From Escherichia coli (GTDB taxonomy: Bacteria; Pseudomonadota; Gammaproteobacteria; Enterobacterales; Enterobacteriaceae), in the NCBI RefSeq assembly GCF_003019035.1, contig NZ_CP027447.1: 64,000 nt of DNA, one strand, 5' to 3'. The notes beneath the pieces are model-generated. The model was not told the origin of the DNA, made no database searches, and saw only the letters and a list, made by a program, of their open reading frames with translations. This document shows, one piece after another, positions 354-59,173 of this stretch (the stretch's first letter is position 1; the number at the start of each line of letters is the position of its first letter). The position numbers and the translations under genes were made by a program.

Positions 354-2135
354 ATGAATGCTGCCCTGACTGAACGACTGGTTTATGTCGCCCGCGCGGC
401 ACGTGACGCGGGGCATGGTAAACGCGGTGCAATATACGACGCTGCCTGTGCTGAACTTGGCATGTCCCGCGCCACTCTGCTGCGCAGGCTGAAGGAGGTC
501 TCTGTGACTGATAAACGCAAAAAACGCGCCGATGCCGGGCGCAGCGCTCTGACCCGCGACGAAGCCGCGCTGATATCTGCCACACTGCGTGAGGCCACCC
601 GCAAGAACGGTAAGCGTCTCTATTCCATCGCAGATGCAGTGGAAACCCTGCGGGCTAACGGCTTTATCTCCGCAGGCAGAACAGATGAAACCACCGGTGA
701 GTTTTTCCCGTTGTCCGAAGATGCCATCAGTCGTGCCCTGCGTAACTATGGCCTGCACCCGGAACAACTGGATGCCCCTGCACCGCATACCGAAGTGGCC
801 AGTCTGCATCCCAATCATGTCTGGCAGATTGACGCCTCACTCTGCACGCTTTACTACCTGAGCAATGGACATAAAGGGCTGCAGGTGATGGACAGCGCGA
901 AGTTCTACAAGAACAAGCCCGCTAACCTTGCCCGTATCGCCAGTGACCGCGTGTGGAGTTACGAGATTACCGACCATGCCAGCGGCTGGATTTACGTTGA
1001 GTATGTGACGGGCGCGGAATCCGGTGAGAACCTGTGTTCTGTGCTTATCAACGCCATGCAGGAGCGCGGTGGCGCAGACGTGCTGCACGGCGTGCCGAAA
1101 ATACTCTATCTCGACCCTGGCTCGGCAAACACCGCGGGTATGACGAAAAACATGTGCCGCTCACTGGGCATCGACCTGATAGCGCACAGGCCGCATAACG
1201 CCCGCGCCACCGGACAGGTGGAAAAGGCGCGTGACATTATCGAACGCAAGCTGGAGCCGGGTCTGAAGTTCCGGCCGGTTCACAGTCTGGAAGAACTCAA
1301 CGCGCTGGCCGCGAAATGGCGCAGCCACTTTAACGCCACGGCTGTTCACAGCCGCCACGGTAAAACCCGCACGGATATCTGGCTGAAGATTACTGCTGAG
1401 CAGCTGAAAAAAGCGCCTTCCGTTGAAGTATGCCGTGAACTGGCTGTGGCGACACCAGAACTCCGCAAAGTCACGCCAAAACTTCGTGTCTCGTTCCGGG
1501 GCACTGAATTTGACGTATCAACGGTACCGGGCGTACTGGTTGGTGAAAAACTGATGATTACCCGTAACCCATGGCGCAGCGATGTGGCACAGGTGGTTCT
1601 GACCGGTGAGGACGGCCACGAGACGTTCTTCCTGGTCGAAGAGGTCAGAAAGAACGAGTTTGGCTTTGCTGAAGGCGCGGCGGTATTTGGCGAAAGTTAC
1701 AAAGCCCTGCCGGAAACCCCGGCACAGATGGCGGCAAAAGAAACCGAAGCGCTGGTTACCGGTACAGACAACGCCGCAGATGCAGCCGCCGCACGCAAGG
1801 CGAAGGCGCTGCCGTTCGGCGGGCGGCTTGACCCGTATAAACATATCGACGACACCACACTTCCGGCCTATATGCCGAAGCGTGGTCAGGCCTCTGACGT
1901 ACGCGGGCCGCGCACTGAACAACGTCCCATGACTCATGTGGAGGCCGCGAAAGCCCTGCGCGATAAGTTCAGCGCCGACGGCCTTACCTGGACGCCGGAA
2001 CATTACCGCCAGTTAACGGCACAGTACCCGGACGGCGTACCGGAAGCTGCACTGGATGAAGTCATGGCCACGCTGACCACGCCGGCCCGCAGCAGCGTTA
2101 TCAGCAGCGTTATCAGCATTGTTAACGGCAACTGA
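354..2135 (+). CDS. Mu-like DDE transposase (A-like, integrase-core family)
   Basis: 593 aa ORF, ATG at 354 with GGAGG upstream; integrase-core-like segment (HVWQIDAS...); sits directly upstream of a B-like ATPase as in Mu A-B. Confidence 0.8.
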   Translation: MNAALTERLVYVARAARDAGHGKRGAIYDAACAELGMSRATLLRRLKEVSVTDKRKKRADAGRSALTRDEAALISATLREATRKNGKRLYSIADAVETLRANGFISAGRTDETTGEFFPLSEDAISRALRNYGLHPEQLDAPAPHTEVASLHPNHVWQIDASLCTLYYLSNGHKGLQVMDSAKFYKNKPANLARIASDRVWSYEITDHASGWIYVEYVTGAESGENLCSVLINAMQERGGADVLHGVPKILYLDPGSANTAGMTKNMCRSLGIDLIAHRPHNARATGQVEKARDIIERKLEPGLKFRPVHSLEELNALAAKWRSHFNATAVHSRHGKTRTDIWLKITAEQLKKAPSVEVCRELAVATPELRKVTPKLRVSFRGTEFDVSTVPGVLVGEKLMITRNPWRSDVAQVVLTGEDGHETFFLVEEVRKNEFGFAEGAAVFGESYKALPETPAQMAAKETEALVTGTDNAADAAAARKAKALPFGGRLDPYKHIDDTTLPAYMPKRGQASDVRGPRTEQRPMTHVEAAKALRDKFSADGLTWTPEHYRQLTAQYPDGVPEAALDEVMATLTTPARSSVISSVISIVNGN

Positions 2136-2145
2136 GGAGGAAAAC

Positions 2146-3312
2146 ATGCTGGTACTGAAGCAGCAACTGAAAGAGGCCCGTATCCCACAGGCGGTGGTGG
2201 CGAGAGCTGTCGATGTTTCTGAGGCCACGCTGGCCCAGATTGTGAATCATAACGCGTGGCCCCGCACCCGCCCCGGAGAAGTGCGCCGGCGTCTTGCGTC
2301 CTGGCTGGAAAGTCAGGGGATTGATACAACGAAGAGTTTTGATGCTGTACAGGGCGCGGCCACGCCCCGTACAGCGGGTACCACAGATAAAACGAGCCTC
2401 AGTGAGGAAGAGAATATGTTACTCAAAAAACAGGTGTTATTTCCAGCAACCAAAAAAGCGTTTGGTCTTTTCCGTGACCCGTTCGCCGACGAAGCCATGC
2501 AGGGTTCTGATGATGTGTTCACCACCCCGGACATTCGCTACGTGCGTGAGGCGCTGTACCAGACAGCCCGTCATGGTGGGTTTATGGCCGTCATCGGTGA
2601 GTCCGGTGCGGGTAAATCCACGCTGCGCCGCGACCTGACTGAACGTATCAACCGCGAGAATGCGCCGGTAATTGTTATCGAGCCATACATCATCGCTATG
2701 GAAGACAACGATGTGAAAGGGAAAACCCTGAAGGCAGCAGCTATTGCCGAAGCCATTATCAGTACCATCGCACCACTGGAAAGCATCAGACGCAGTCAGG
2801 ACGCCCGCTTTCGCCAGTTGCATCGCGTCCTGAAAGACAGCAGCCAGGCGGGGTTCAGCCACGTTCTGGTGATTGAGGAGGCTCACAGTCTGCCCATTCC
2901 GACACTGAAACACCTCAAACGCTTTTTTGAGCTGGAGTCCGGTTTCAAAAAACTGCTGTCCATCGTGCTGATTGGTCAGCCGGAACTGGCGACAAAACTG
3001 TCTGAACGCAATATGGAAGTCCGTGAAGTCGTTCAGCGCTGTGAGGTGGTCGAACTTCTGCCTCTGGACAATAACCTTGAAGAGTTTCTGACGTTCAAAC
3101 TGCAACGGGCCGGTAAACAACTGACGGACATTATGGACGCCAGTGCAGTGGATGCCATACGTGCCCGCCTGAGCAATCCGGGAAGTCATCGTAAAAATAT
3201 GGTCAGCCTGCTGTATCCGCTGGCCGTCAGTAACCTGGTGATAGCCGCCATGAATCTGGCCGCTGAAATCGGGGTTCCACAGGTCAACGCTGACGTTGTC
3301 AAAGGGGTTTAA
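2146..3312 (+). CDS. Mu B-like AAA+ transposition ATPase
   Basis: ATG 2146 preceded by GAGGAGG; Walker A GESGAGKST, Walker B-like VLVIEEAHSL; N-terminal HTH-like segment; overlaps A stop. Track ORF starts at TTG 2119, but the ATG at 2146 has the better RBS. Confidence 0.8.
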   Translation: MLVLKQQLKEARIPQAVVARAVDVSEATLAQIVNHNAWPRTRPGEVRRRLASWLESQGIDTTKSFDAVQGAATPRTAGTTDKTSLSEEENMLLKKQVLFPATKKAFGLFRDPFADEAMQGSDDVFTTPDIRYVREALYQTARHGGFMAVIGESGAGKSTLRRDLTERINRENAPVIVIEPYIIAMEDNDVKGKTLKAAAIAEAIISTIAPLESIRRSQDARFRQLHRVLKDSSQAGFSHVLVIEEAHSLPIPTLKHLKRFFELESGFKKLLSIVLIGQPELATKLSERNMEVREVVQRCEVVELLPLDNNLEEFLTFKLQRAGKQLTDIMDASAVDAIRARLSNPGSHRKNMVSLLYPLAVSNLVIAAMNLAAEIGVPQVNADVVKGV

Positions 3313-3314
3313 TA

Positions 3315-3584
3315 ATGAAATCCACCACAGGTATCAACCAGCAAATCAGCAAAGTGCAGTCAGCCATTATGGCGCTTAAGGCGACGAACACGGATGTACA
3401 AAGCATCACCATCAGGGGTAACAAACCTGTCATCCGCGTTTCCCGGAGTGCGCATTGCATGCGCATGCTTGAGCAGGGAAAGGCCTGTTATCTGTATACC
3501 GGACATGACCACAGGGGATATTTCCGTCAGGGCGTTTTCGAACTGCACGGCTGTCGCGTCGTGTGGCCGGAATCTTTGTGGTAA
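3315..3584 (+). CDS. hypothetical small protein (89 aa) between B and gam
   Basis: ATG 3315 with AAAGGGG RBS, 2 nt after B stop; no recognisable motif. Confidence 0.5.
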   Translation: MKSTTGINQQISKVQSAIMALKATNTDVQSITIRGNKPVIRVSRSAHCMRMLEQGKACYLYTGHDHRGYFRQGVFELHGCRVVWPESLW

Positions 3585-3611
3585 TCAGCACAACTGGAGA
3601 AATCATAAAAT

Positions 3612-4142
3612 ATGGCAAAAAGTACAAAAGGGGCAAAACGTATCAAGTCCGCAGCGGCACTCTGGGTACCAGGGACACGCGAAGAGGTCATTGAGGGCAT
3701 CAGACTGCTCGGTGACGCACAACGTGAACTGGTCAGGGCTGAAACAGAAATGAATGACGCCATTGGCGATATCACCGCACGTTATGCCCCGCTCACCGAG
3801 AGCCTGAAAAAACGCATGGCCGAACTGCAGTCCGGTATTCAGACATGGTGTGAGGCACACCGTGATGAACTGACCGGCAACGGGAAGGTGAAGTTCGCTA
3901 ACCTCACCACCGGCGAGGTGCAGTGGCGAAACCGTCCGCCATCAGTCAGTATCCGTGGAGCGGATAATGTTATTGAACTACTGAGACGTCTGGGGCTTGA
4001 GCGCTTTATTCGTGTAAAAGAGGAAATAAATAAAGATGCCATTCTGAATGAAAAAGAGGCCGTGAAAAATATTCCCGGTATTACCATAAAAAGTGATATT
4101 GAGGATTTTTCAATAATTCCTTTTGAGCAGGATGTGCAGTAA
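3612..4142 (+). CDS. gam: Gam-like host-nuclease inhibitor (Mu Gam / Ku-like DNA end-binding)
   Basis: 176 aa; N-terminus MAK...KRIKSAAA, ETEMNDAI, and C-terminal EDFSIIPFEQ closely match recalled phage Mu Gam. Confidence 0.88.
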   Translation: MAKSTKGAKRIKSAAALWVPGTREEVIEGIRLLGDAQRELVRAETEMNDAIGDITARYAPLTESLKKRMAELQSGIQTWCEAHRDELTGNGKVKFANLTTGEVQWRNRPPSVSIRGADNVIELLRRLGLERFIRVKEEINKDAILNEKEAVKNIPGITIKSDIEDFSIIPFEQDVQ

Positions 4143-4184
4143 ACACACCACGTTAATTATTTAATAAAAATATTTTCTTTTTTA

Positions 4185-4221
4185 TTCCGGCGTCAGCGCC
4201 GTGGGCTTCTGCACGCCGGAA
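4185..4221 (+). promoter_or_regulatory. inverted repeat / hairpin in AT-rich intergenic region after gam
   Basis: ttccggcgt (4185-4193) pairs with acgccggaa (4213-4221), preceded by a T-rich tract; may be a gam terminator or an operator for the next operon. Confidence 0.3.
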
Positions 4222-4239
4222 ACAGAGGAGAATTAAATT

Positions 4240-4434
4240 ATGATATTTAAATGTATTCAGTGCGAGAGGGATATAACAGCCCTGCGTTTTCACAGCGCCA
4301 TCGCCGTGATGTCCGGTAAATACCACATCCCTGCGGTACGCGTCACCCTGGTCTGCCCGTACTGCAGCCAGCATTTTTCGGCGGACGTGCCCGTCATGGA
4401 ATTCTCCCGCCCTGACAGGGAGGACGCGCAATGA
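4240..4434 (+). CDS. small zinc-ribbon protein (64 aa; CxxC...CxxC)
   Basis: ATG 4240 with GAGGAG RBS; Cys pairs CIQC and CPYC about 30 residues apart. Confidence 0.55.
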   Translation: MIFKCIQCERDITALRFHSAIAVMSGKYHIPAVRVTLVCPYCSQHFSADVPVMEFSRPDREDAQ

Positions 4435-4703
4435 TTACCCCACAGGAAGCACGACAGCGCACCCGAACCCTTGTTGAACACTATGTCAACGAGTGTGAAT
4501 GCCGCGACCTCACCGATGTGAAGCACGTCCTGACGGCGCTAATCAGCATGGCCGCTCAGGCCATTGTGGCGACCAACGGAAAGGCGGCTGCCCTGCAGGT
4601 ACTGGTGAACACACTCACCCACACGGCAGAGCATGAGGTGCCGTACCGGATGGAAACCACTGCAGAAGGCGGCCTGCACATCACCGTCAGCCGGAAGCAC
4701 TGA
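4431..4703 (+). CDS. hypothetical protein (90 aa)
   Basis: ATGA start/stop overlap with the preceding gene, GGGAGG RBS; no recognised domain. Confidence 0.5.
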   Translation: MITPQEARQRTRTLVEHYVNECECRDLTDVKHVLTALISMAAQAIVATNGKAAALQVLVNTLTHTAEHEVPYRMETTAEGGLHITVSRKH

Positions 4704-4712
4704 GGGCGCGGC

Positions 4713-5009
4713 ATGACACGAAACACCGAACTCACCCGCACCGCCCTCTACCGTCTGGCCCTGCACCGTTTCGGGCCGGACGCACAGGCCCTGAAACTGA
4801 CAGAAGAGGCCGCTGAACTGGCGGCCAGTGCTGCCCGCAATCTGAACGGACAGGGCAACGAAAGTGACCTCGCGGCAGAGCTGGCAGACGTGGAAATCAT
4901 GACAGAGCAATTGCGCCTTCAGGGGATGGACCGGCTGATTGACTTCCACAAACAGAAAAAACTGGAACGTCTGGCTGCACGACTGGGCGTGATTTACACG
5001 AACGAGTAA
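4713..5009 (+). CDS. MazG-like nucleotide pyrophosphohydrolase-domain protein (putative)
   Basis: 98 aa; EEAAELA and ELADVEI motifs resemble the EExxE and ExxD helices of small MazG/NTP-PPase proteins; GAGGG RBS. Confidence 0.45.
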   Translation: MTRNTELTRTALYRLALHRFGPDAQALKLTEEAAELAASAARNLNGQGNESDLAAELADVEIMTEQLRLQGMDRLIDFHKQKKLERLAARLGVIYTNE

Positions 5010-5023
5010 CCGGGAGGCATTCA

Positions 5024-5239
5024 ATGGCTGACATACTCAGGGAAATCACCGCATGGATACTGATTCTTACTGGCCTGGCGACATGCCTCAGTGCGGGGGC
5101 AGCCCTGGCTGCCCTGCTGATGCACATAACAACACAGTGGTTATGGGAAAAGCTTAAAGCAGCATACAGCCTGAAAGAGCTGTCCGACGCTGTCCGGGCA
5201 TGGAAACGGCAGAAAAATACCGGAGATACAGAACAATGA
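5024..5239 (+). CDS. small membrane protein (71 aa, one predicted TM helix)
   Basis: ATG 5024 with GGGAGG RBS; hydrophobic segment ITAWILILTGLATCLSAGAALAALLM; ATGA overlap with the next gene. Confidence 0.5.
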   Translation: MADILREITAWILILTGLATCLSAGAALAALLMHITTQWLWEKLKAAYSLKELSDAVRAWKRQKNTGDTEQ

Positions 5240-5919
5240 CAGACCAGAATAAACACATTGAGAAACTGAAAAAGTTGCTGGCGCTGGCCGCATCCGGCAA
5301 CCCGCACGAGGCCGCTCTGGCACTGCGCCGAGCCCGTAAACTGATGGATGTTCACGGCATCACACATTCCGACATTGCTATGAGTGATATTGATGAAACC
5401 ATCAGTCATTACTGGCCGACAGGCAGTCTCCGTCCACCGCGCTACATGCTGGGCCTGATGAACATCATCCGCGAGGCATTTGGTGTTAACTCCATCATTC
5501 ACCCCGGCACGCATCCGTCTGTGGGGTTCTACGGTAACCGGGAACGAGCGGCACTGGCTGCGTACACCTGGGAAGTGCTGGTCCGCCAGCTGAAAAAGGC
5601 GCGTCAGCAGTATATCAGCGCACAGAACAAAAGAATAAAAAACGCCACCCGTACCAGCCGTGGAGACCAGTTTGCTGAAGGCTGGGTACTGGCCGTTATC
5701 AGTGAAATACAGTCCTTTGCCCTGACCGATGATGAGCGTGAACTGATGCAACAGTGGCTGGAACATAAATACCCGCAAACGCAAACCACCAGGGCGCGTA
5801 AACCGGGAAGAAGCCGCAATGGCGACGCCTCGCGCTATGCGGGGTTTCGTGAAGGGCAGAACGTCAGACTGCACCGCCCGGTCAGTGGGCAGGAACAACA
5901 GAAACTGGAGGCCAGATGA
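5236..5919 (+). CDS. DUF2786-like phage protein (227 aa)
   Basis: N-terminal motif KLKKLLALAASGNPHEAALALRRARKLM is typical of the DUF2786 family; GGAGA RBS. Confidence 0.55.
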   Translation: MTDQNKHIEKLKKLLALAASGNPHEAALALRRARKLMDVHGITHSDIAMSDIDETISHYWPTGSLRPPRYMLGLMNIIREAFGVNSIIHPGTHPSVGFYGNRERAALAAYTWEVLVRQLKKARQQYISAQNKRIKNATRTSRGDQFAEGWVLAVISEIQSFALTDDERELMQQWLEHKYPQTQTTRARKPGRSRNGDASRYAGFREGQNVRLHRPVSGQEQQKLEAR

Positions 5920-6146
5920 TTACGCTATCAGGTAACAGCCGGAAATTAAAAGCCTGCCGAATATCTGCCAGATACCTTTTTGCCCGCGCCTTTTTTAAGA
6001 ACGTCAGGCCGGGGATCACAATTGGTGTTATTGCCGGACGCGAACAGGTTGAAAAATACATGTCAGGTGCATGGTGGGATAACGACCCTGTCATTGCTGC
6101 CCGTAATATTCATATCAGTTGGGGGGATATTCAGAATGACGGCTGA
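5916..6146 (+). CDS. hypothetical protein (76 aa)
   Basis: ATGA overlap with DUF2786 gene stop, GGAG RBS 5 nt upstream; no domain recognised. Confidence 0.4.
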   Translation: MITLSGNSRKLKACRISARYLFARAFFKNVRPGITIGVIAGREQVEKYMSGAWWDNDPVIAARNIHISWGDIQNDG

Positions 6147-6351
6147 ATCTGTTGTATGTGCCCTGTTCTGGTATTGTTTTGTCGGTTGGTGTACTGCTGA
6201 ACTGCACCGCCGTTCAGGGTTTTATTCACGTTACAGTGGTGCCGGCTACTGGATTAGCTGGTCGGTGATGTTCCTGTGCTGGCCTGTGGCGCTTCCTTTA
6301 TATGTCGGTTATATCGGTGGCGCAGGTAAAAGGAGCAACGATGATGACTAA
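6136..6351 (+). CDS. small membrane protein (71 aa, two predicted TM helices)
   Basis: ATG 6136 preceded by GGGGGG; two hydrophobic, W/C-rich helices; 3' end overlaps gemA start. Confidence 0.45.
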   Translation: MTAESVVCALFWYCFVGWCTAELHRRSGFYSRYSGAGYWISWSVMFLCWPVALPLYVGYIGGAGKRSNDDD

Positions 6352-6793
6352 ACAACGTCTTATCCAGCTCATTCATATTGCCCGTAATGAACTGGGTATG
6401 GATGAAGACACCTACCGCCAGATGTTACAGGGGCTGACCGGTAAAGCCTCAACCAAAGGAATGGATACCACACAACTAAACTGCGTGCTGGAATCCATGA
6501 AAAGGAAAGGCTTTCGCGTTAAGCCTGCCGGAAAAGCCAGCTCCGGTTTACCGCTGGATAACCATCCGCAGTCCAGGAAAATCCGTGCGCTATGGCTTGA
6601 AATGGCTGCTGCCGGCATTGTTCGTGACCGTTCAGAAAATGCATTAGCGCGGTGGATCAAGCGGGAAACGGGCATCAGCGCCCTGCGCTGGCTCAATACT
6701 GAACAGGCAAGCAGTGTTATTGAGAAACTGAAGAAGTGGCAGCACAGAGCTGCGGGAGTAAAACATGAGCGACCTGAATCAGTTTCGAAGTAA
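6341..6793 (+). CDS. gemA: GemA-like protein (Mu gp16 family)
   Basis: ATG 6341 with AAAGGAG RBS; N-terminus MMTKQRLIQLIHIARNELGMDEDTYRQ matches the GemA family; 3' end overlaps mor by 29 nt. Confidence 0.8.
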   Translation: MMTKQRLIQLIHIARNELGMDEDTYRQMLQGLTGKASTKGMDTTQLNCVLESMKRKGFRVKPAGKASSGLPLDNHPQSRKIRALWLEMAAAGIVRDRSENALARWIKRETGISALRWLNTEQASSVIEKLKKWQHRAAGVKHERPESVSK

Positions 6794-7163
6794 AGGGCCG
6801 GAACTCCTGGTGGAGCTGGCACAGCATACCTCTGAGACCGTTCGCGAGATTATTGATATTGAGCCCGCAATTGCCGACCAGATTGGTCAGGCCGTCGCGA
6901 ACCGAATGATGCAGGTCTGGGGCGGGCAAAACGTTTATTTCCCGATGGGCATGGTATGGAAGGTCAGTCAGCGCGACCGGGAAATCTTCAGGGAGTTTAA
7001 CGGACGCAACCACCACGAACTGGCCCGCAAGTTTGGTGTTTCGCTTCAGTGGGTCTACAGCGTGGTTAAGCGGGTCAGAAAAGAAGAACTGGATCGGATG
7101 CAGGGCAGGTTGTTTGATGAAGATCTGCCAGAGGAGACGAAAGACGTTAACAAATCCAGATAA
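6765..7163 (+). CDS. mor: Mor-like middle-operon transcriptional activator
   Basis: 132 aa; GGQNVYFP motif and C-terminal HTH resemble Mu Mor; GGGAG RBS. Confidence 0.82.
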   Translation: MSDLNQFRSKGPELLVELAQHTSETVREIIDIEPAIADQIGQAVANRMMQVWGGQNVYFPMGMVWKVSQRDREIFREFNGRNHHELARKFGVSLQWVYSVVKRVRKEELDRMQGRLFDEDLPEETKDVNKSR

Positions 7164-7205: not shown

Positions 7206-7240
7206 AAAAGCACGGTAGACCCCTTACCGTGCTTTTTTTA
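7206..7240 (+). terminator. rho-independent terminator after mor
   Basis: Stem agcacggta / taccgtgct with 7-nt loop, followed by a T7 run (7234-7240). Confidence 0.6.
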
Positions 7241-7277: not shown

Positions 7278-7910
7278 ATGTTTGACGTTTCGTTGTTAAA
7301 TCTGCCATGGGCAACACTGGTGACCCTGACCAGTGGCTATATTGGGTATTTTATTGCGAATGTGGGACTGAAGGATCACCACAAGCCCATTGAGGTGACT
7401 TTTTCTTCGCTGATTTTTGGCCTGACAGCAATGATGGCTTACCAGGCTGTTATGTGGGCAGGTCTGAATGCCTGGCTGGCAACACCACCAGCACTTCTGT
7501 GTGCCGTTACATGCGGTGCGTGGTGGCGCAGGTACGGTCGCAAATGGATGTACAGATTACTGTGGAATAATGATATTTCATGGTCTGACGATACCAGCTC
7601 AGCATGGCAGGCAATGTTTGATCAAACAGGCTTCAGCGTTACCGAGGTCAGAGTGATTCTTCGCGATGGTTCCGGTATGATGTCACGGCTGCCAGGGAAC
7701 TTTGAAGAGTGGCCTAACGGTCCGTTTACCCTGGGGAATAAAGGCGATATGGTTCTTTACGTCACGCACAGCAGCCCTTCAGGCAGTAACGAATGGGAAG
7801 AGTATAAAGGCGTGGTTGATAAGTACTGGGGAGCTCTGGCAACCTATATTCCAGCAGATCAGATTGCCAGAGTGGAGATCAGGCGCGTTCGTGCAACGAA
7901 CGATGAATGA
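7278..7910 (+). CDS. orphan membrane protein (211 aa; three N-terminal TM helices plus about 125-aa soluble C-terminal domain), function unknown
   Basis: ATG 7278 with AGGGAGA RBS 6 nt upstream; hydrophobic helices at roughly residues 8-30, 40-63 and 67-83; sits where Mu carries late activator C; no family recognised. Confidence 0.6.
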   Translation: MFDVSLLNLPWATLVTLTSGYIGYFIANVGLKDHHKPIEVTFSSLIFGLTAMMAYQAVMWAGLNAWLATPPALLCAVTCGAWWRRYGRKWMYRLLWNNDISWSDDTSSAWQAMFDQTGFSVTEVRVILRDGSGMMSRLPGNFEEWPNGPFTLGNKGDMVLYVTHSSPSGSNEWEEYKGVVDKYWGALATYIPADQIARVEIRRVRATNDE

Positions 7911-8295
7911 TGTTTATTTTTTCCCTGGGGCAGGGGCTGCCGGCATAGTGGTTTTATTGGCAGAGGAAGACGATTCTCCTTTTCTACCGGAATCGCGCTC
8001 GAACGTCACGATGTGCTTGCTTTTGGGCTTTTCTGAGTAATCCAGGCTATCATGCTTATTGTTTTGAGTAGTCATTGGAATCATCCTTTTTGTTGCGGGT
8101 CATGTTTCAGCAAACTCGATTCTAAGTTGCCAGGAAGGATGATTTCAATGCCCGACTTATCTATCGTATAGCGGAAAAGAATTTCAGTTCTGTTCACCAG
8201 AACCCATGTTAACCCACTCCAATTCGTTATTTATCTCACGGATCCCCCTTCATTTATCTCATGTCTGATCAAATCAATAATCATCATGAATGTTT

Positions 8296-8435: not shown

Positions 8436-8903
8436 ATGATTAAACGCGTATTGGTTGTTTCAATGGTAGGTCTGTCTCTTGTCGGTTGTGTTAATAACGA
8501 CACCCTGTCAGGGGATGTTTATACCGCTTCTGAAGCGAAACAAGTACAGAATGTCAGCTATGGCACCATCGTTAACGTACGTCCGGTACAGATTCAGGGC
8601 GGTGATGATTCCAACGTTATCGGTGCAATTGGCGGTGCTGTTCTTGGTGGTTTCCTGGGGAATACTGTTGGCGGCGGAACCGGGCGTTCTCTGGCTACTG
8701 CAGCAGGCGCTGTTGCAGGTGGCGTAGCCGGTCAGGGCGTACAGAGTGCAATGAACAAAACGCAGGGTGTCGAGCTGGAAATTCGTAAAGACGATGGTAA
8801 TACCATCATGGTGGTACAGAAACAAGGCAACACTCGTTTCTCTCCGGGCCAACGTGTCGTACTGGCCAGCAATGGCAGTCAGGTGACCGTTTCCCCGCGC
8901 TAA
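8436..8903 (+). CDS. slyB: outer membrane lipoprotein SlyB
   Basis: 155 aa; lipobox LVGC and Gly-rich core match E. coli SlyB. Confidence 0.95.
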   Translation: MIKRVLVVSMVGLSLVGCVNNDTLSGDVYTASEAKQVQNVSYGTIVNVRPVQIQGGDDSNVIGAIGGAVLGGFLGNTVGGGTGRSLATAAGAVAGGVAGQGVQSAMNKTQGVELEIRKDDGNTIMVVQKQGNTRFSPGQRVVLASNGSQVTVSPR

Positions 8904-25847: not shown

Positions 25848-26012
25848 GCCTTATCTCCACCTCTTCGCGTCATTACGCGATATTCATTAAAGTGGCGAAA
25901 GCATGACAGCAATCACAAAAAAATGAAAATAACAAAAAGAGAAAACACTTTTGCCATTTTGCTAACAAACAGGAAGGAGATGCGAGGGAGAGCGCGCTCC
26001 CTCGAGAGGAAA

Positions 26013-26102
26013 TCAGTGCAGCGCGGCAGTCAAACCCACGGCCACGATCAAACCGAGGACGATAATCGTTGTTACCAGTGAAAATTTAAGGTCGGTGCTC
26101 AT
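26013..26102 (-). CDS. ynhF: small membrane protein YnhF (29 aa)
   Basis: Minus-strand translation MSTDLKFSLVTTIIVLGLIVAVGLTAALH; below the track length cut-off, found by hand. Confidence 0.6.
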   Translation of the reverse strand: MSTDLKFSLVTTIIVLGLIVAVGLTAALH

Positions 26103-26400
26103 CAAGTTTTCTCCTTTTTTATTACCACACAAAAAGTGATATTACGCATTTTTACACACTGTGATGAAAAAATCTCCCGTCATTTATAATGATAAGTGTT
26201 TTTACCACTTCCCCTTTTCGTCAAGATCGGCCAAAATTCCACGCTTACACTATTTGCGTACTGGCCATTGACCCCTTCCTGACGCTCCGTGTCGTTTTTC
26301 CGGCGTACCGCAACACTTTTGTTGTGCGTAAGGTGTGTAAAGGCAAACGTTTACCTTGCGATTTTGCAGGAGCTGAAGTTAGGGTCTGGAGTGAAATGGA

Positions 26401-34991: not shown

Positions 34992-35068
34992 GCGTTCATA
35001 GCTCAGTTGGTTAGAGCACCACCTTGACATGGTGGGGGTCGTTGGTTCGAGTCCAATTGAACGCACCA
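34992..35068 (+). tRNA. valV: tRNA-Val (anticodon GAC)
   Basis: 77-nt cloverleaf GCGTTCATAGCTCAGTTGGTTAGAGC...TTCGAGTCC...ACGCACCA. Confidence 0.93.
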
Positions 35069-35072
35069 TCCT

Positions 35073-35149
35073 GCGTCCGTAGCTCAGTTGGTTAGAGCAC
35101 CACCTTGACATGGTGGGGGTCGGTGGTTCGAGTCCACTCGGACGCACCA
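35073..35149 (+). tRNA. valW: tRNA-Val (anticodon GAC)
   Basis: Second near-identical 77-nt tRNA 4 nt downstream, ending CCA. Confidence 0.93.
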
Positions 35150-53224: not shown

Positions 53225-53295
53225 CAGAAATAAGAAAACCCTTAAGTCTGTGCGACACAGGCTTAAGGGTTTCTACCCCATCCGGCGCTTATCTC
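53225..53295 (-). ncRNA. rydB: candidate small RNA (RydB position) ending in a minus-strand intrinsic terminator
   Basis: 16-bp near-perfect hairpin (53237-53271) followed, on the minus strand, by a U-rich tract; RydB is recalled to lie between sufA and ydiH. Boundaries are approximate and the sequence identity is not verified. Confidence 0.3.
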
Positions 53296-53494
53296 CGGCA
53301 CTCTCAGTGGCTTAGCTCTTGAAGGGGCGATAAGAATAATCTCATAAAGCTAACCCGCCGTTTTAACACAAACTGCGATTAGTATTATTTTTGAACAATA
53401 TCAGGCGGGTAGATAAGCAGTATTAAGAAGGTCATCGAACCTGGACGGAGGTTAATCCAGGTCGATTTGGCGAAATTGCGGCATTAAGTCAGGA

Positions 53495-58930: not shown

Positions 58931-59036
58931 ACGGTTATAAATCAACATATTGATTTATAAGCATGGAAATCCCCTGAGTGAAACAACGAATTGCTGTGTG
59001 TAGTCTTTGCCCATCTCCCACGATGGGCTTTTTTTT
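58931..59036 (+). ncRNA. rprA: small regulatory RNA RprA
   Basis: acggttataaatcaacatattgatttataagcatggaaatcccctgagtg...cccatctcccacgatgggcttttttt matches recalled RprA including its terminator. Confidence 0.88.
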
Positions 59037-59173
59037 AACATTTTTCCGCTTCGCTACCTCGCCCCTCACGCTTTCCAATAATGTTGCACAAGATACTGTG
59101 ACTCTCTTCAAGCCGTCAGCAGGCTGATAATGTTATTTATATTTTATTGTTTATTTCATGCAGCCATTACACG

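Follow-up and report, generated by a model that had tools for sequence, protein, structure and literature searches.

Enzymes of the all-alpha NTP pyrophosphohydrolase (NTP-PPase) superfamily cleave the alpha-beta phosphoanhydride of a nucleoside 5'-triphosphate and complete their active site by assembling into homo-oligomers (dimers or tetramers). Their hallmark is a Mg2+ site made up of four acidic residues, which are Glu119, Glu122, Glu138 and Asp141 in MazG of Mycobacterium tuberculosis and Glu46, Glu49, Glu74 and Asp77 in the dUTPase of Campylobacter jejuni, where basic residues also participate in substrate hydrolysis (PMC10014863). Two phage-encoded proteins of this type are of particular interest here. 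MazG of cyanophage S-PM2 prefers dGTP and dCTP and leaves (p)ppGpp untouched (Rihtman et al. 2019, PMC6850273). Pectobacterium phage PcCB7V encodes Atd1, which hydrolyses ppGpp with a Km of about 50 µM, lowers the cellular (p)ppGpp level and protects against TIR-STING toxicity, so that alarmone-triggered toxin activation and abortive infection are stopped (Ho et al., bioRxiv 10.1101/2022.06.09.495361). A published MazG of the Burkholderia phages KL1/AH2 belongs to siphoviruses, not to transposable phages, and a literature search on MazG in Mu-like or transposable phages found nothing relevant.

The genome of PcCB7V, which was reached via an accession given in PMC8879037, carries two all-alpha NTP-PPase genes (L088, 3605-3865 and 33984-34346). 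QQG33552.1 consists of 120 residues, is annotated as 'hydrolase' and scored 35.4 bits on Pfam MazG; the annotation of QQG33500.1 is PRA-PH, and a nucleotidyltransferase gene is found two genes away. A tblastn search with E. coli MazG did not locate Atd1. However, the candidates in the screen that led to Atd1 were ORFs no more than four genes away from a phage nucleotidyltransferase (Ho et al., bioRxiv 10.1101/2022.06.09.495361), and because of this design Atd1 is most likely QQG33500.1. This protein of 86 residues has a single domain with the motif pair QEEVEEL...VEMSDL (EExxE...ExxD) and, like the protein described below, stays below the Pfam cut-offs.

The window analysed here is the whole stretch of 64,000 nucleotides of Escherichia coli DNA. 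On its + strand, an ORF of 98 codons (ATG...TAA) at 4713-5009 encodes the product MTRNTELTRTALYRLALHRFGPDAQALKLTEEAAELAASAARNLNGQGNESDLAAELADVEIMTEQLRLQGMDRLIDFHKQKKLERLAARLGVIYTNE. The Shine-Dalgarno-like GAGGG in front of this ORF overlaps the TGA of the preceding gene, which is a sign of translational packing within an operon, and 14 nt lie between its own stop codon and the start of the next gene. A comparison with orthologues of about 75% identity gave approximately 13, 13 and 46 differences at codon positions 1, 2 and 3, and dN/dS values of 0.11-0.17 according to Nei-Gojobori. Thus, purifying selection on the frame is strong, and the ORF is a real, conserved gene.

The gene is part of the early operon in a transposable prophage of the BcepMu type (Table 1), which agrees with the genomic setting proposed in an earlier note made from the sequence of the window. 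The genes for transposase, MuB-like ATPase, Gam, GemA and Mor are co-linear on one strand and end at the phage terminus; according to the PHROG assignments, several small ORFs without assigned function belong to the operon as well. The layout of BcepMu, whose early operon heads towards the genome end, is the same. The gene order is shared, at 97-99% identity, by a RefSeq prophage and by PhiKM, an isolated phage of the genus Bcepmuvirus, and both label the counterpart of the 98-codon gene 'hypothetical protein'. The annotation of PhiKM contains no dUTPase or other nucleotide-metabolism enzyme. On the + strand, no promoter-like site was found for the gene and no terminator-like site close to it, the nearest ones being located at 3950-3966 and 6276-6292. 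Since an early-operon gene without such sites of its own would follow the operon, it is expected to be silent in the lysogen, and its product would be made once the phage is induced or infecting.

Table 1. Features of the prophage segment and of the 98-codon gene, in coordinates of the window
Feature	Position	Strand	Basis or remark
Early operon carrying the gene	354-7163	+	ORFs, PHROG assignments, PhiKM and RefSeq prophage annotation
rve-type transposase	354-2135	+	ORF, PHROG
MuB/ExeA-like ATPase	2119-3312	+	ORF, PHROG
Gam	3612-4142	+	ORF, PHROG
64-aa Cys-rich protein (CxxC...CPxC), PHROG 3401, conserved	4240-4434	+	Two genes upstream of 4713-5009
Shine-Dalgarno-like GAGGG	4702-4706	+	Direct sequence reading; 6 nt 5' of ATG
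Minimal all-alpha NTP pyrophosphohydrolase-like gene, 98 codons	4713-5009	+	PHROG 2245 match
First acidic motif (EExxE), EEAAELA, E31-E32-A-A-E35-L-A; predicted metal ligands, helix 1	4803-4823	+	Conservation, alignments
Second acidic motif (ExxD), ELADVEI, E56-L-A-D59-V-E61-I; predicted metal ligands, helix 2	4878-4898	+	Conservation, alignments
Conserved basic patch, K83-L-E-R86-L87, C-terminal half of helix 2	4959-4973	+	Conservation
DUF2786 protein	5236-5919	+	ORF, PHROG
GemA	6302-6793	+	ORF, PHROG
Mor	6765-7163	+	ORF, PHROG
Strong intrinsic terminator, 13-bp stem and T-run, closing the early operon after mor	7206-7236	+	Sequence
Prophage end ...TGATCA, followed by host DNA (slyB upstream region)	8266-8271		Similarity break, sequence

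The similarity to the same prophage located elsewhere in other E. coli genomes breaks at 8271-8273, and host slyB follows at 8436, about 165 bp past the prophage end. In E. coli MSB1_4I the same phage interrupts dgcQ; the use of different host sites is consistent with near-random transposition. With regard to a target-site duplication, note that the second phage end falls outside the window. The first 9 kb of the window is present to at least 80% in 121 of 5,426 complete E. coli genomes (about 2%). Some further observations concern the surroundings of the gene. At the site of the Cys-rich protein, the GenBank record of PhiKM lists a gene on the opposite strand (L001, 5441-5662), which is probably a mis-annotation. 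Beyond the early-operon terminator, a gene transcribed separately (about 7278-7910, + strand; phrog_12870) encodes a protein of 210 residues, probably a membrane protein as judged from its sequence. It was found in only some of the otherwise 97-99% identical prophages, resembles variable cargo of the phage terminus and might have a role in lysogenic conversion or exclusion. Rfam matches above the gathering threshold at 26010-26400, 34992-35146, 53268-53328 and 58931-59038 (STnc550, two tRNAs with an overlapping antisense HPnc0260, rydB, and RprA) are ordinary features of the E. coli chromosome.

The 98-residue product matched PHROG 2245, 'nucleoside triphosphate pyrophosphohydrolase', with E = 7.9e-34; residues 1-97 were aligned to positions 113-211 of the profile, which comprises 218 positions. 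Weaker matches were obtained for three further NTP-PPase/MazG-like PHROGs. Whereas the HMM search advocated in the earlier note was therefore clearly positive for this phage family, the scores of the single protein for the curated profiles, although pointing in this direction too, were below the cut-offs: 13.1 bits (E = 0.12) for Pfam MazG (PF03819; gathering threshold 22 bits), 15.7 bits for Pfam PRA-PH (PF01503; cut-off 21.3) and 15.6 bits for NCBIfam HisE (TIGR03188; cut-off 42.7). Pfam dUTPase_2 did not match the protein, and a PDB sequence search with the single protein gave sub-threshold or spurious matches (designed repeat proteins, IWS1). Among the relatives, 21 of 78 matched Pfam MazG at E < 0.01. 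The proposal of a MazG-like NTP-PPase thus holds at the level of the superfamily, where the PHROG match, the structural model and the conserved motifs support it, but membership of the Pfam MazG family is not supported.

A profile search among 1.84 billion cluster representatives gave 9,470 matches at E <= 1e-3 and 1,800 at E <= 1e-10; among the matches listed, most have a length of 85-200 residues. A first family alignment that included long C-terminal extensions had resulted in a profile of 168 positions with one irrelevant PDB match, and the alignment was rebuilt. Compared with solved structures, the family profile gave marginal E-values for 5IE9 (0.006), 2Q73 (0.03), 2Q5Z (0.06), 2GTA (0.1) and 1VMG (0.6); with these five MazG-type structures, the two acidic motifs were correctly aligned. 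The same motifs were aligned in a profile-profile comparison (hhalign) with an E. coli-type MazG alignment, which gave a weak E-value of 0.014 at a reported probability of 3%. For the bona fide Pfam MazG of phage PcCB7V, the profile-profile E-value was 0.0044.

The closest cluster at 90% identity contains 650 sequences. Close homologues (62-97% identity) were found only in prophages of Enterobacterales and are nearly all unnamed; one of them, a JGI record, is labelled 'NTP pyrophosphatase (non-canonical NTP hydrolase)'. Further relatives are present in phages of Cellulophaga, Flavobacterium, Clostridium, Xanthomonas, Stenotrophomonas and Aeromonas, and for the first four of these hosts deposited relatives bear an NTP-PPase label. 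The protein resembles the members of PHROG 2245, which include proteins of Cellulophaga phage phi10:1, Flavobacterium phage 1/32 and Clostridium phage phiCT19406B, in size and in the core EExAEL...AEEIADVEIMxEQ. PHROGs and some phage records already name the family NTP-PPase; unlike these members, the RefSeq and GenBank orthologues of the gene are still labelled 'hypothetical protein', and the gene is a so far unannotated member. In the literature searched, we found no experimentally characterised member of PHROG 2245 and no report of an activity of the family. Some of the orthologues and other relatives are longer (166-180 residues) due to an extra C- or N-terminal domain of about 70-80 residues (P0012, P0030, P0031, P0048, P0051, P0053, P0055; L014, L029, L033). 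This domain is absent from the copy studied here, nothing similar to it was found within the window, and a Pfam scan of the longer relatives for domain fusions gave nothing significant.

The two acidic motifs that had drawn attention to the gene, EEAAELA and ELADVEI, are indeed present in the product, at residues 31-37 and 56-62. Their conservation was assessed in an alignment of 78 relatives which are 32-96%, most of them 33-52%, identical to the protein. E31, D59 and Q66 are invariant; Y13, A16, G21, Q25, E32, E35, L36, E56, A58, V60, I62, M63, K83, R86 and L87 are conserved in at least 90% of the sequences. The charged core that emerges from this alignment is E32-x2-E35-x20-E56-x2-D59 plus a basic pair, and the four-acidic Mg2+ pattern of the superfamily, (E)ExxE...ExxD, is present. 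The first motif aligns with EEMGEL of Bacillus MazG (5IE9), EETYEV of E. coli MazG and TEAAEF of the PcCB7V MazG, the second one with EELGDV (5IE9) and ELGDL (E. coli MazG). On the basis of their conservation, K83 and R86 are probably phosphate-binding residues. Note that the neighbouring Gam protein contains a chance instance of the pattern EExxE(12-28)ExxD and that, of the 411 long reading frames in the window, 4 have the looser pattern ExxE...ExxD. For this reason, the acidic motif by itself is not diagnostic; it is the conservation that exceeds chance. An assignment by motif, as originally put forward, would have been insufficient, but the motifs in question turned out to be the conserved core of a large family.

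An AlphaFold2 model based on the alignment of 78 sequences reached a mean pLDDT of 94.9 and a pTM of 0.80. It consists of two long helices (9-44 and 50-90), and in the model the helices of this all-helical subunit fit the four-helix-bundle active site of the superfamily. The top matches in a Foldseek search were DCTPP1, HisE, Bacillus MazG, RS21-C6, AF1178, YpjD, E. coli MazG and MazZ of cyanophage S-2L, with weak E-values of 0.1-3. A model of a linked dimer, in which the linker imposes the proximity of the subunits, had a pTM of 0.80 and a pLDDT of about 95 for both domains. With proximity forced in this way, it resembled chains of dimeric dUTPases best, with 5MYD as the top match. The predicted fold agrees with that of the all-alpha NTP-PPase superfamily.

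In the following, the protein is compared with known members of this superfamily. The single-domain MazG proteins, i.e. SSO3215 of Sulfolobus solfataricus (1VMG), the Bacillus protein 5IE9, integron iMazG (2Q5Z/2Q73), YpjD of B. subtilis (2GTA) and mouse RS21-C6 / human DCTPP1, are among its nearest counterparts, but the profile E-values are only 0.006-0.6, and the residues determining substrate specificity are not transferable. E. coli MazG (3CRA) is a tandem-domain protein of 263 residues, in contrast to the 98 residues found here, and the profile-profile link to it is the weak one reported above. Sub-threshold scores and the phage early-operon context led us to reject a function as HisE, i.e. 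as phosphoribosyl-ATP pyrophosphohydrolase (PF01503, PDB 1YVW; HisIE 6J22): there is no histidine-biosynthesis context, and a phage has no obvious use for the hydrolysis of PR-ATP. With the dimeric dUTPases (phage/Staphylococcus 5MYD, C. jejuni 1W2Y) the protein shares only 11-13% identity. These enzymes owe their uracil specificity to an extra mobile domain, which the protein does not have. With S-PM2 MazG it would have in common that a phage encodes an auxiliary, MazG-type pyrophosphohydrolase for acting on the nucleotide pool of the host.

The distribution of the family was analysed in IMG/VR, where 383 of 600 pattern matches encode relatives. More than 60 of the 80 loci kept are contigs of transposable phages, and in these the gene occupies the same slot, 3' of gam (where detectable) and 5' of gemA/mor, down to an identity of 45%; the slot is kept even where tblastn detects no transposase. 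The more distant loci have no Mu-like neighbours. On one contig without detectable Mu-like genes, a distant relative that likewise belongs to PHROG 2245 lies in a replication module, beside genes for a DnaD-like loader, the helicase DnaB, RusA and a DNA methyltransferase. Mu and BcepMu contain no homologue; Mu gp9 was considered as a candidate and discarded (E = 0.94, motif missing). Because of its absence from both phages, the gene is an accessory one, which is dispensable for the transposable lifestyle.

The gene, its family and context, the match of its predicted fold and the conservation of its motifs are what we observed, and we assign a probability of about 0.8 to the reading that the product is an enzyme of the all-alpha NTP-PPase superfamily (MazG / HisE / dimeric dUTPase). 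For catalysis, oligomeric state, substrate and physiological role, we infer the following scenario. The helical hairpins of two subunits would pack into a four-helix bundle, in which E32, E35, E56 and D59, aided by E31 and E61, may hold one or more Mg2+ ions, while the phosphates are probably bound by the conserved K83 and R86. The alpha-beta phosphoanhydride of a nucleoside 5'-triphosphate would be cleaved, yielding NMP and pyrophosphate. In this manner the enzyme could act on the host nucleotide pool during replication by transposition, and its targets would most likely be non-canonical dNTPs (dUTP, dITP) or particular canonical dNTPs. If the protein is an enzyme, the odds are slightly better than even that it serves the ordinary purpose of adjusting or cleaning the (d)NTP pool. 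Cyclic oligonucleotides, which the earlier note had listed as a further substrate to be assayed, are unlikely on chemical grounds, since they possess neither a 5'-triphosphate nor a phosphoanhydride that an enzyme of this class could cleave.

Which other explanations could account for these data? The idea that the ORF arose by chance, or that the true gene is an antisense ORF of 161 codons (4539-5024) spanning the whole region, can practically be dismissed: divergence in the + frame is dominated by third positions, with a dN/dS of about 0.13, the + strand product has thousands of homologues, and the + strand gene has a Shine-Dalgarno site, is packed into the operon and was called by both RefSeq and GenBank. 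Given the codon-position bias and the purifying selection acting on the + frame, we consider the antisense ORF an artefact. The same selection is also relevant to the question whether the protein is catalytic at all. It is very small, consists of two helices and has weak sequence-profile links to characterised enzymes; hence, it might act as a small dimeric regulator or bind other proteins, having kept only the shape of an NTP-PPase. Phage dimeric dUTPases double as signalling proteins that derepress pathogenicity islands, and the top match of the dimer model, 5MYD, stems from a study of dUTPases in signalling. However, besides the strong purifying selection, it is the charges of the metal and phosphate site (E31, E32, E35, E56, D59, K83, R86), and not just a hydrophobic interface, that are conserved across more than 70 divergent relatives. 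The nature of these residues makes a purely structural or regulatory role quite improbable.

The main rival explanation is counter-defence: a protein of the same enzyme class could also have a different job, namely the destruction of a nucleotide signal instead of the cleaning of dNTPs. The target could be (p)ppGpp as for Atd1, dITP as in the Kongming system, or the ITP/dITP made by RADAR. Atd1, a MazG-like phage protein removing ppGpp, is the experimental precedent; by analogy with this similarly small enzyme, (p)ppGpp removal is conceivable for the protein studied here, and the probable Atd1 equals it in its minimal architecture, i.e. a phage-encoded single-domain all-alpha NTP-PPase with twin acidic motifs. 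Moreover, dITP is a known immune messenger, and the gene lies in the accessory, non-essential portion of the early operon, surrounded by small genes without assigned function, where phages often place genes for host takeover. These similarities do not extend to kinship: the Atd1 candidate comes from another sequence family with no detectable family-level relationship (BLASTP E = 0.24, hhalign E = 0.12), PcCB7V contains no member of the family described here, and this large lytic phage of the Vequintavirinae has its gene next to a nucleotidyltransferase and not in a Mu-like early operon. In addition, the cyanophage MazG once proposed to degrade ppGpp does not do so, the family is also housed in ordinary replication modules, and a PADLOC scan of the protein and four neighbours gave no match, with no defence or anti-defence genes recognised nearby. 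Weighing both sides, we regard signal destruction as an unlikely function. Its most specific version is still somewhat less likely: the protein would serve transposable phages as an early enzyme dedicated to counter-defence, which upon induction erases a (p)ppGpp or dITP/ITP signal, so that no abortive infection occurs during replicative transposition.

The analysis turns a former 'hypothetical protein' into a candidate enzyme with named predicted catalytic residues. According to the annotation of the near-identical phage PhiKM, this is the sole nucleotide-metabolism gene of the phage, and it offers a handle on the early management of nucleotides or stress signals. If the substrates are ordinary or non-canonical dNTPs, the gene would represent routine phage housekeeping. 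If the counter-defence function holds true, PHROG 2245 would constitute a second family of Atd1-like anti-defence pyrophosphatases, unrelated in sequence and spread across thousands of phages; with an alarmone or a nucleotide immune messenger as the substrate, counter-defence would become the function of a very large family of phage proteins.
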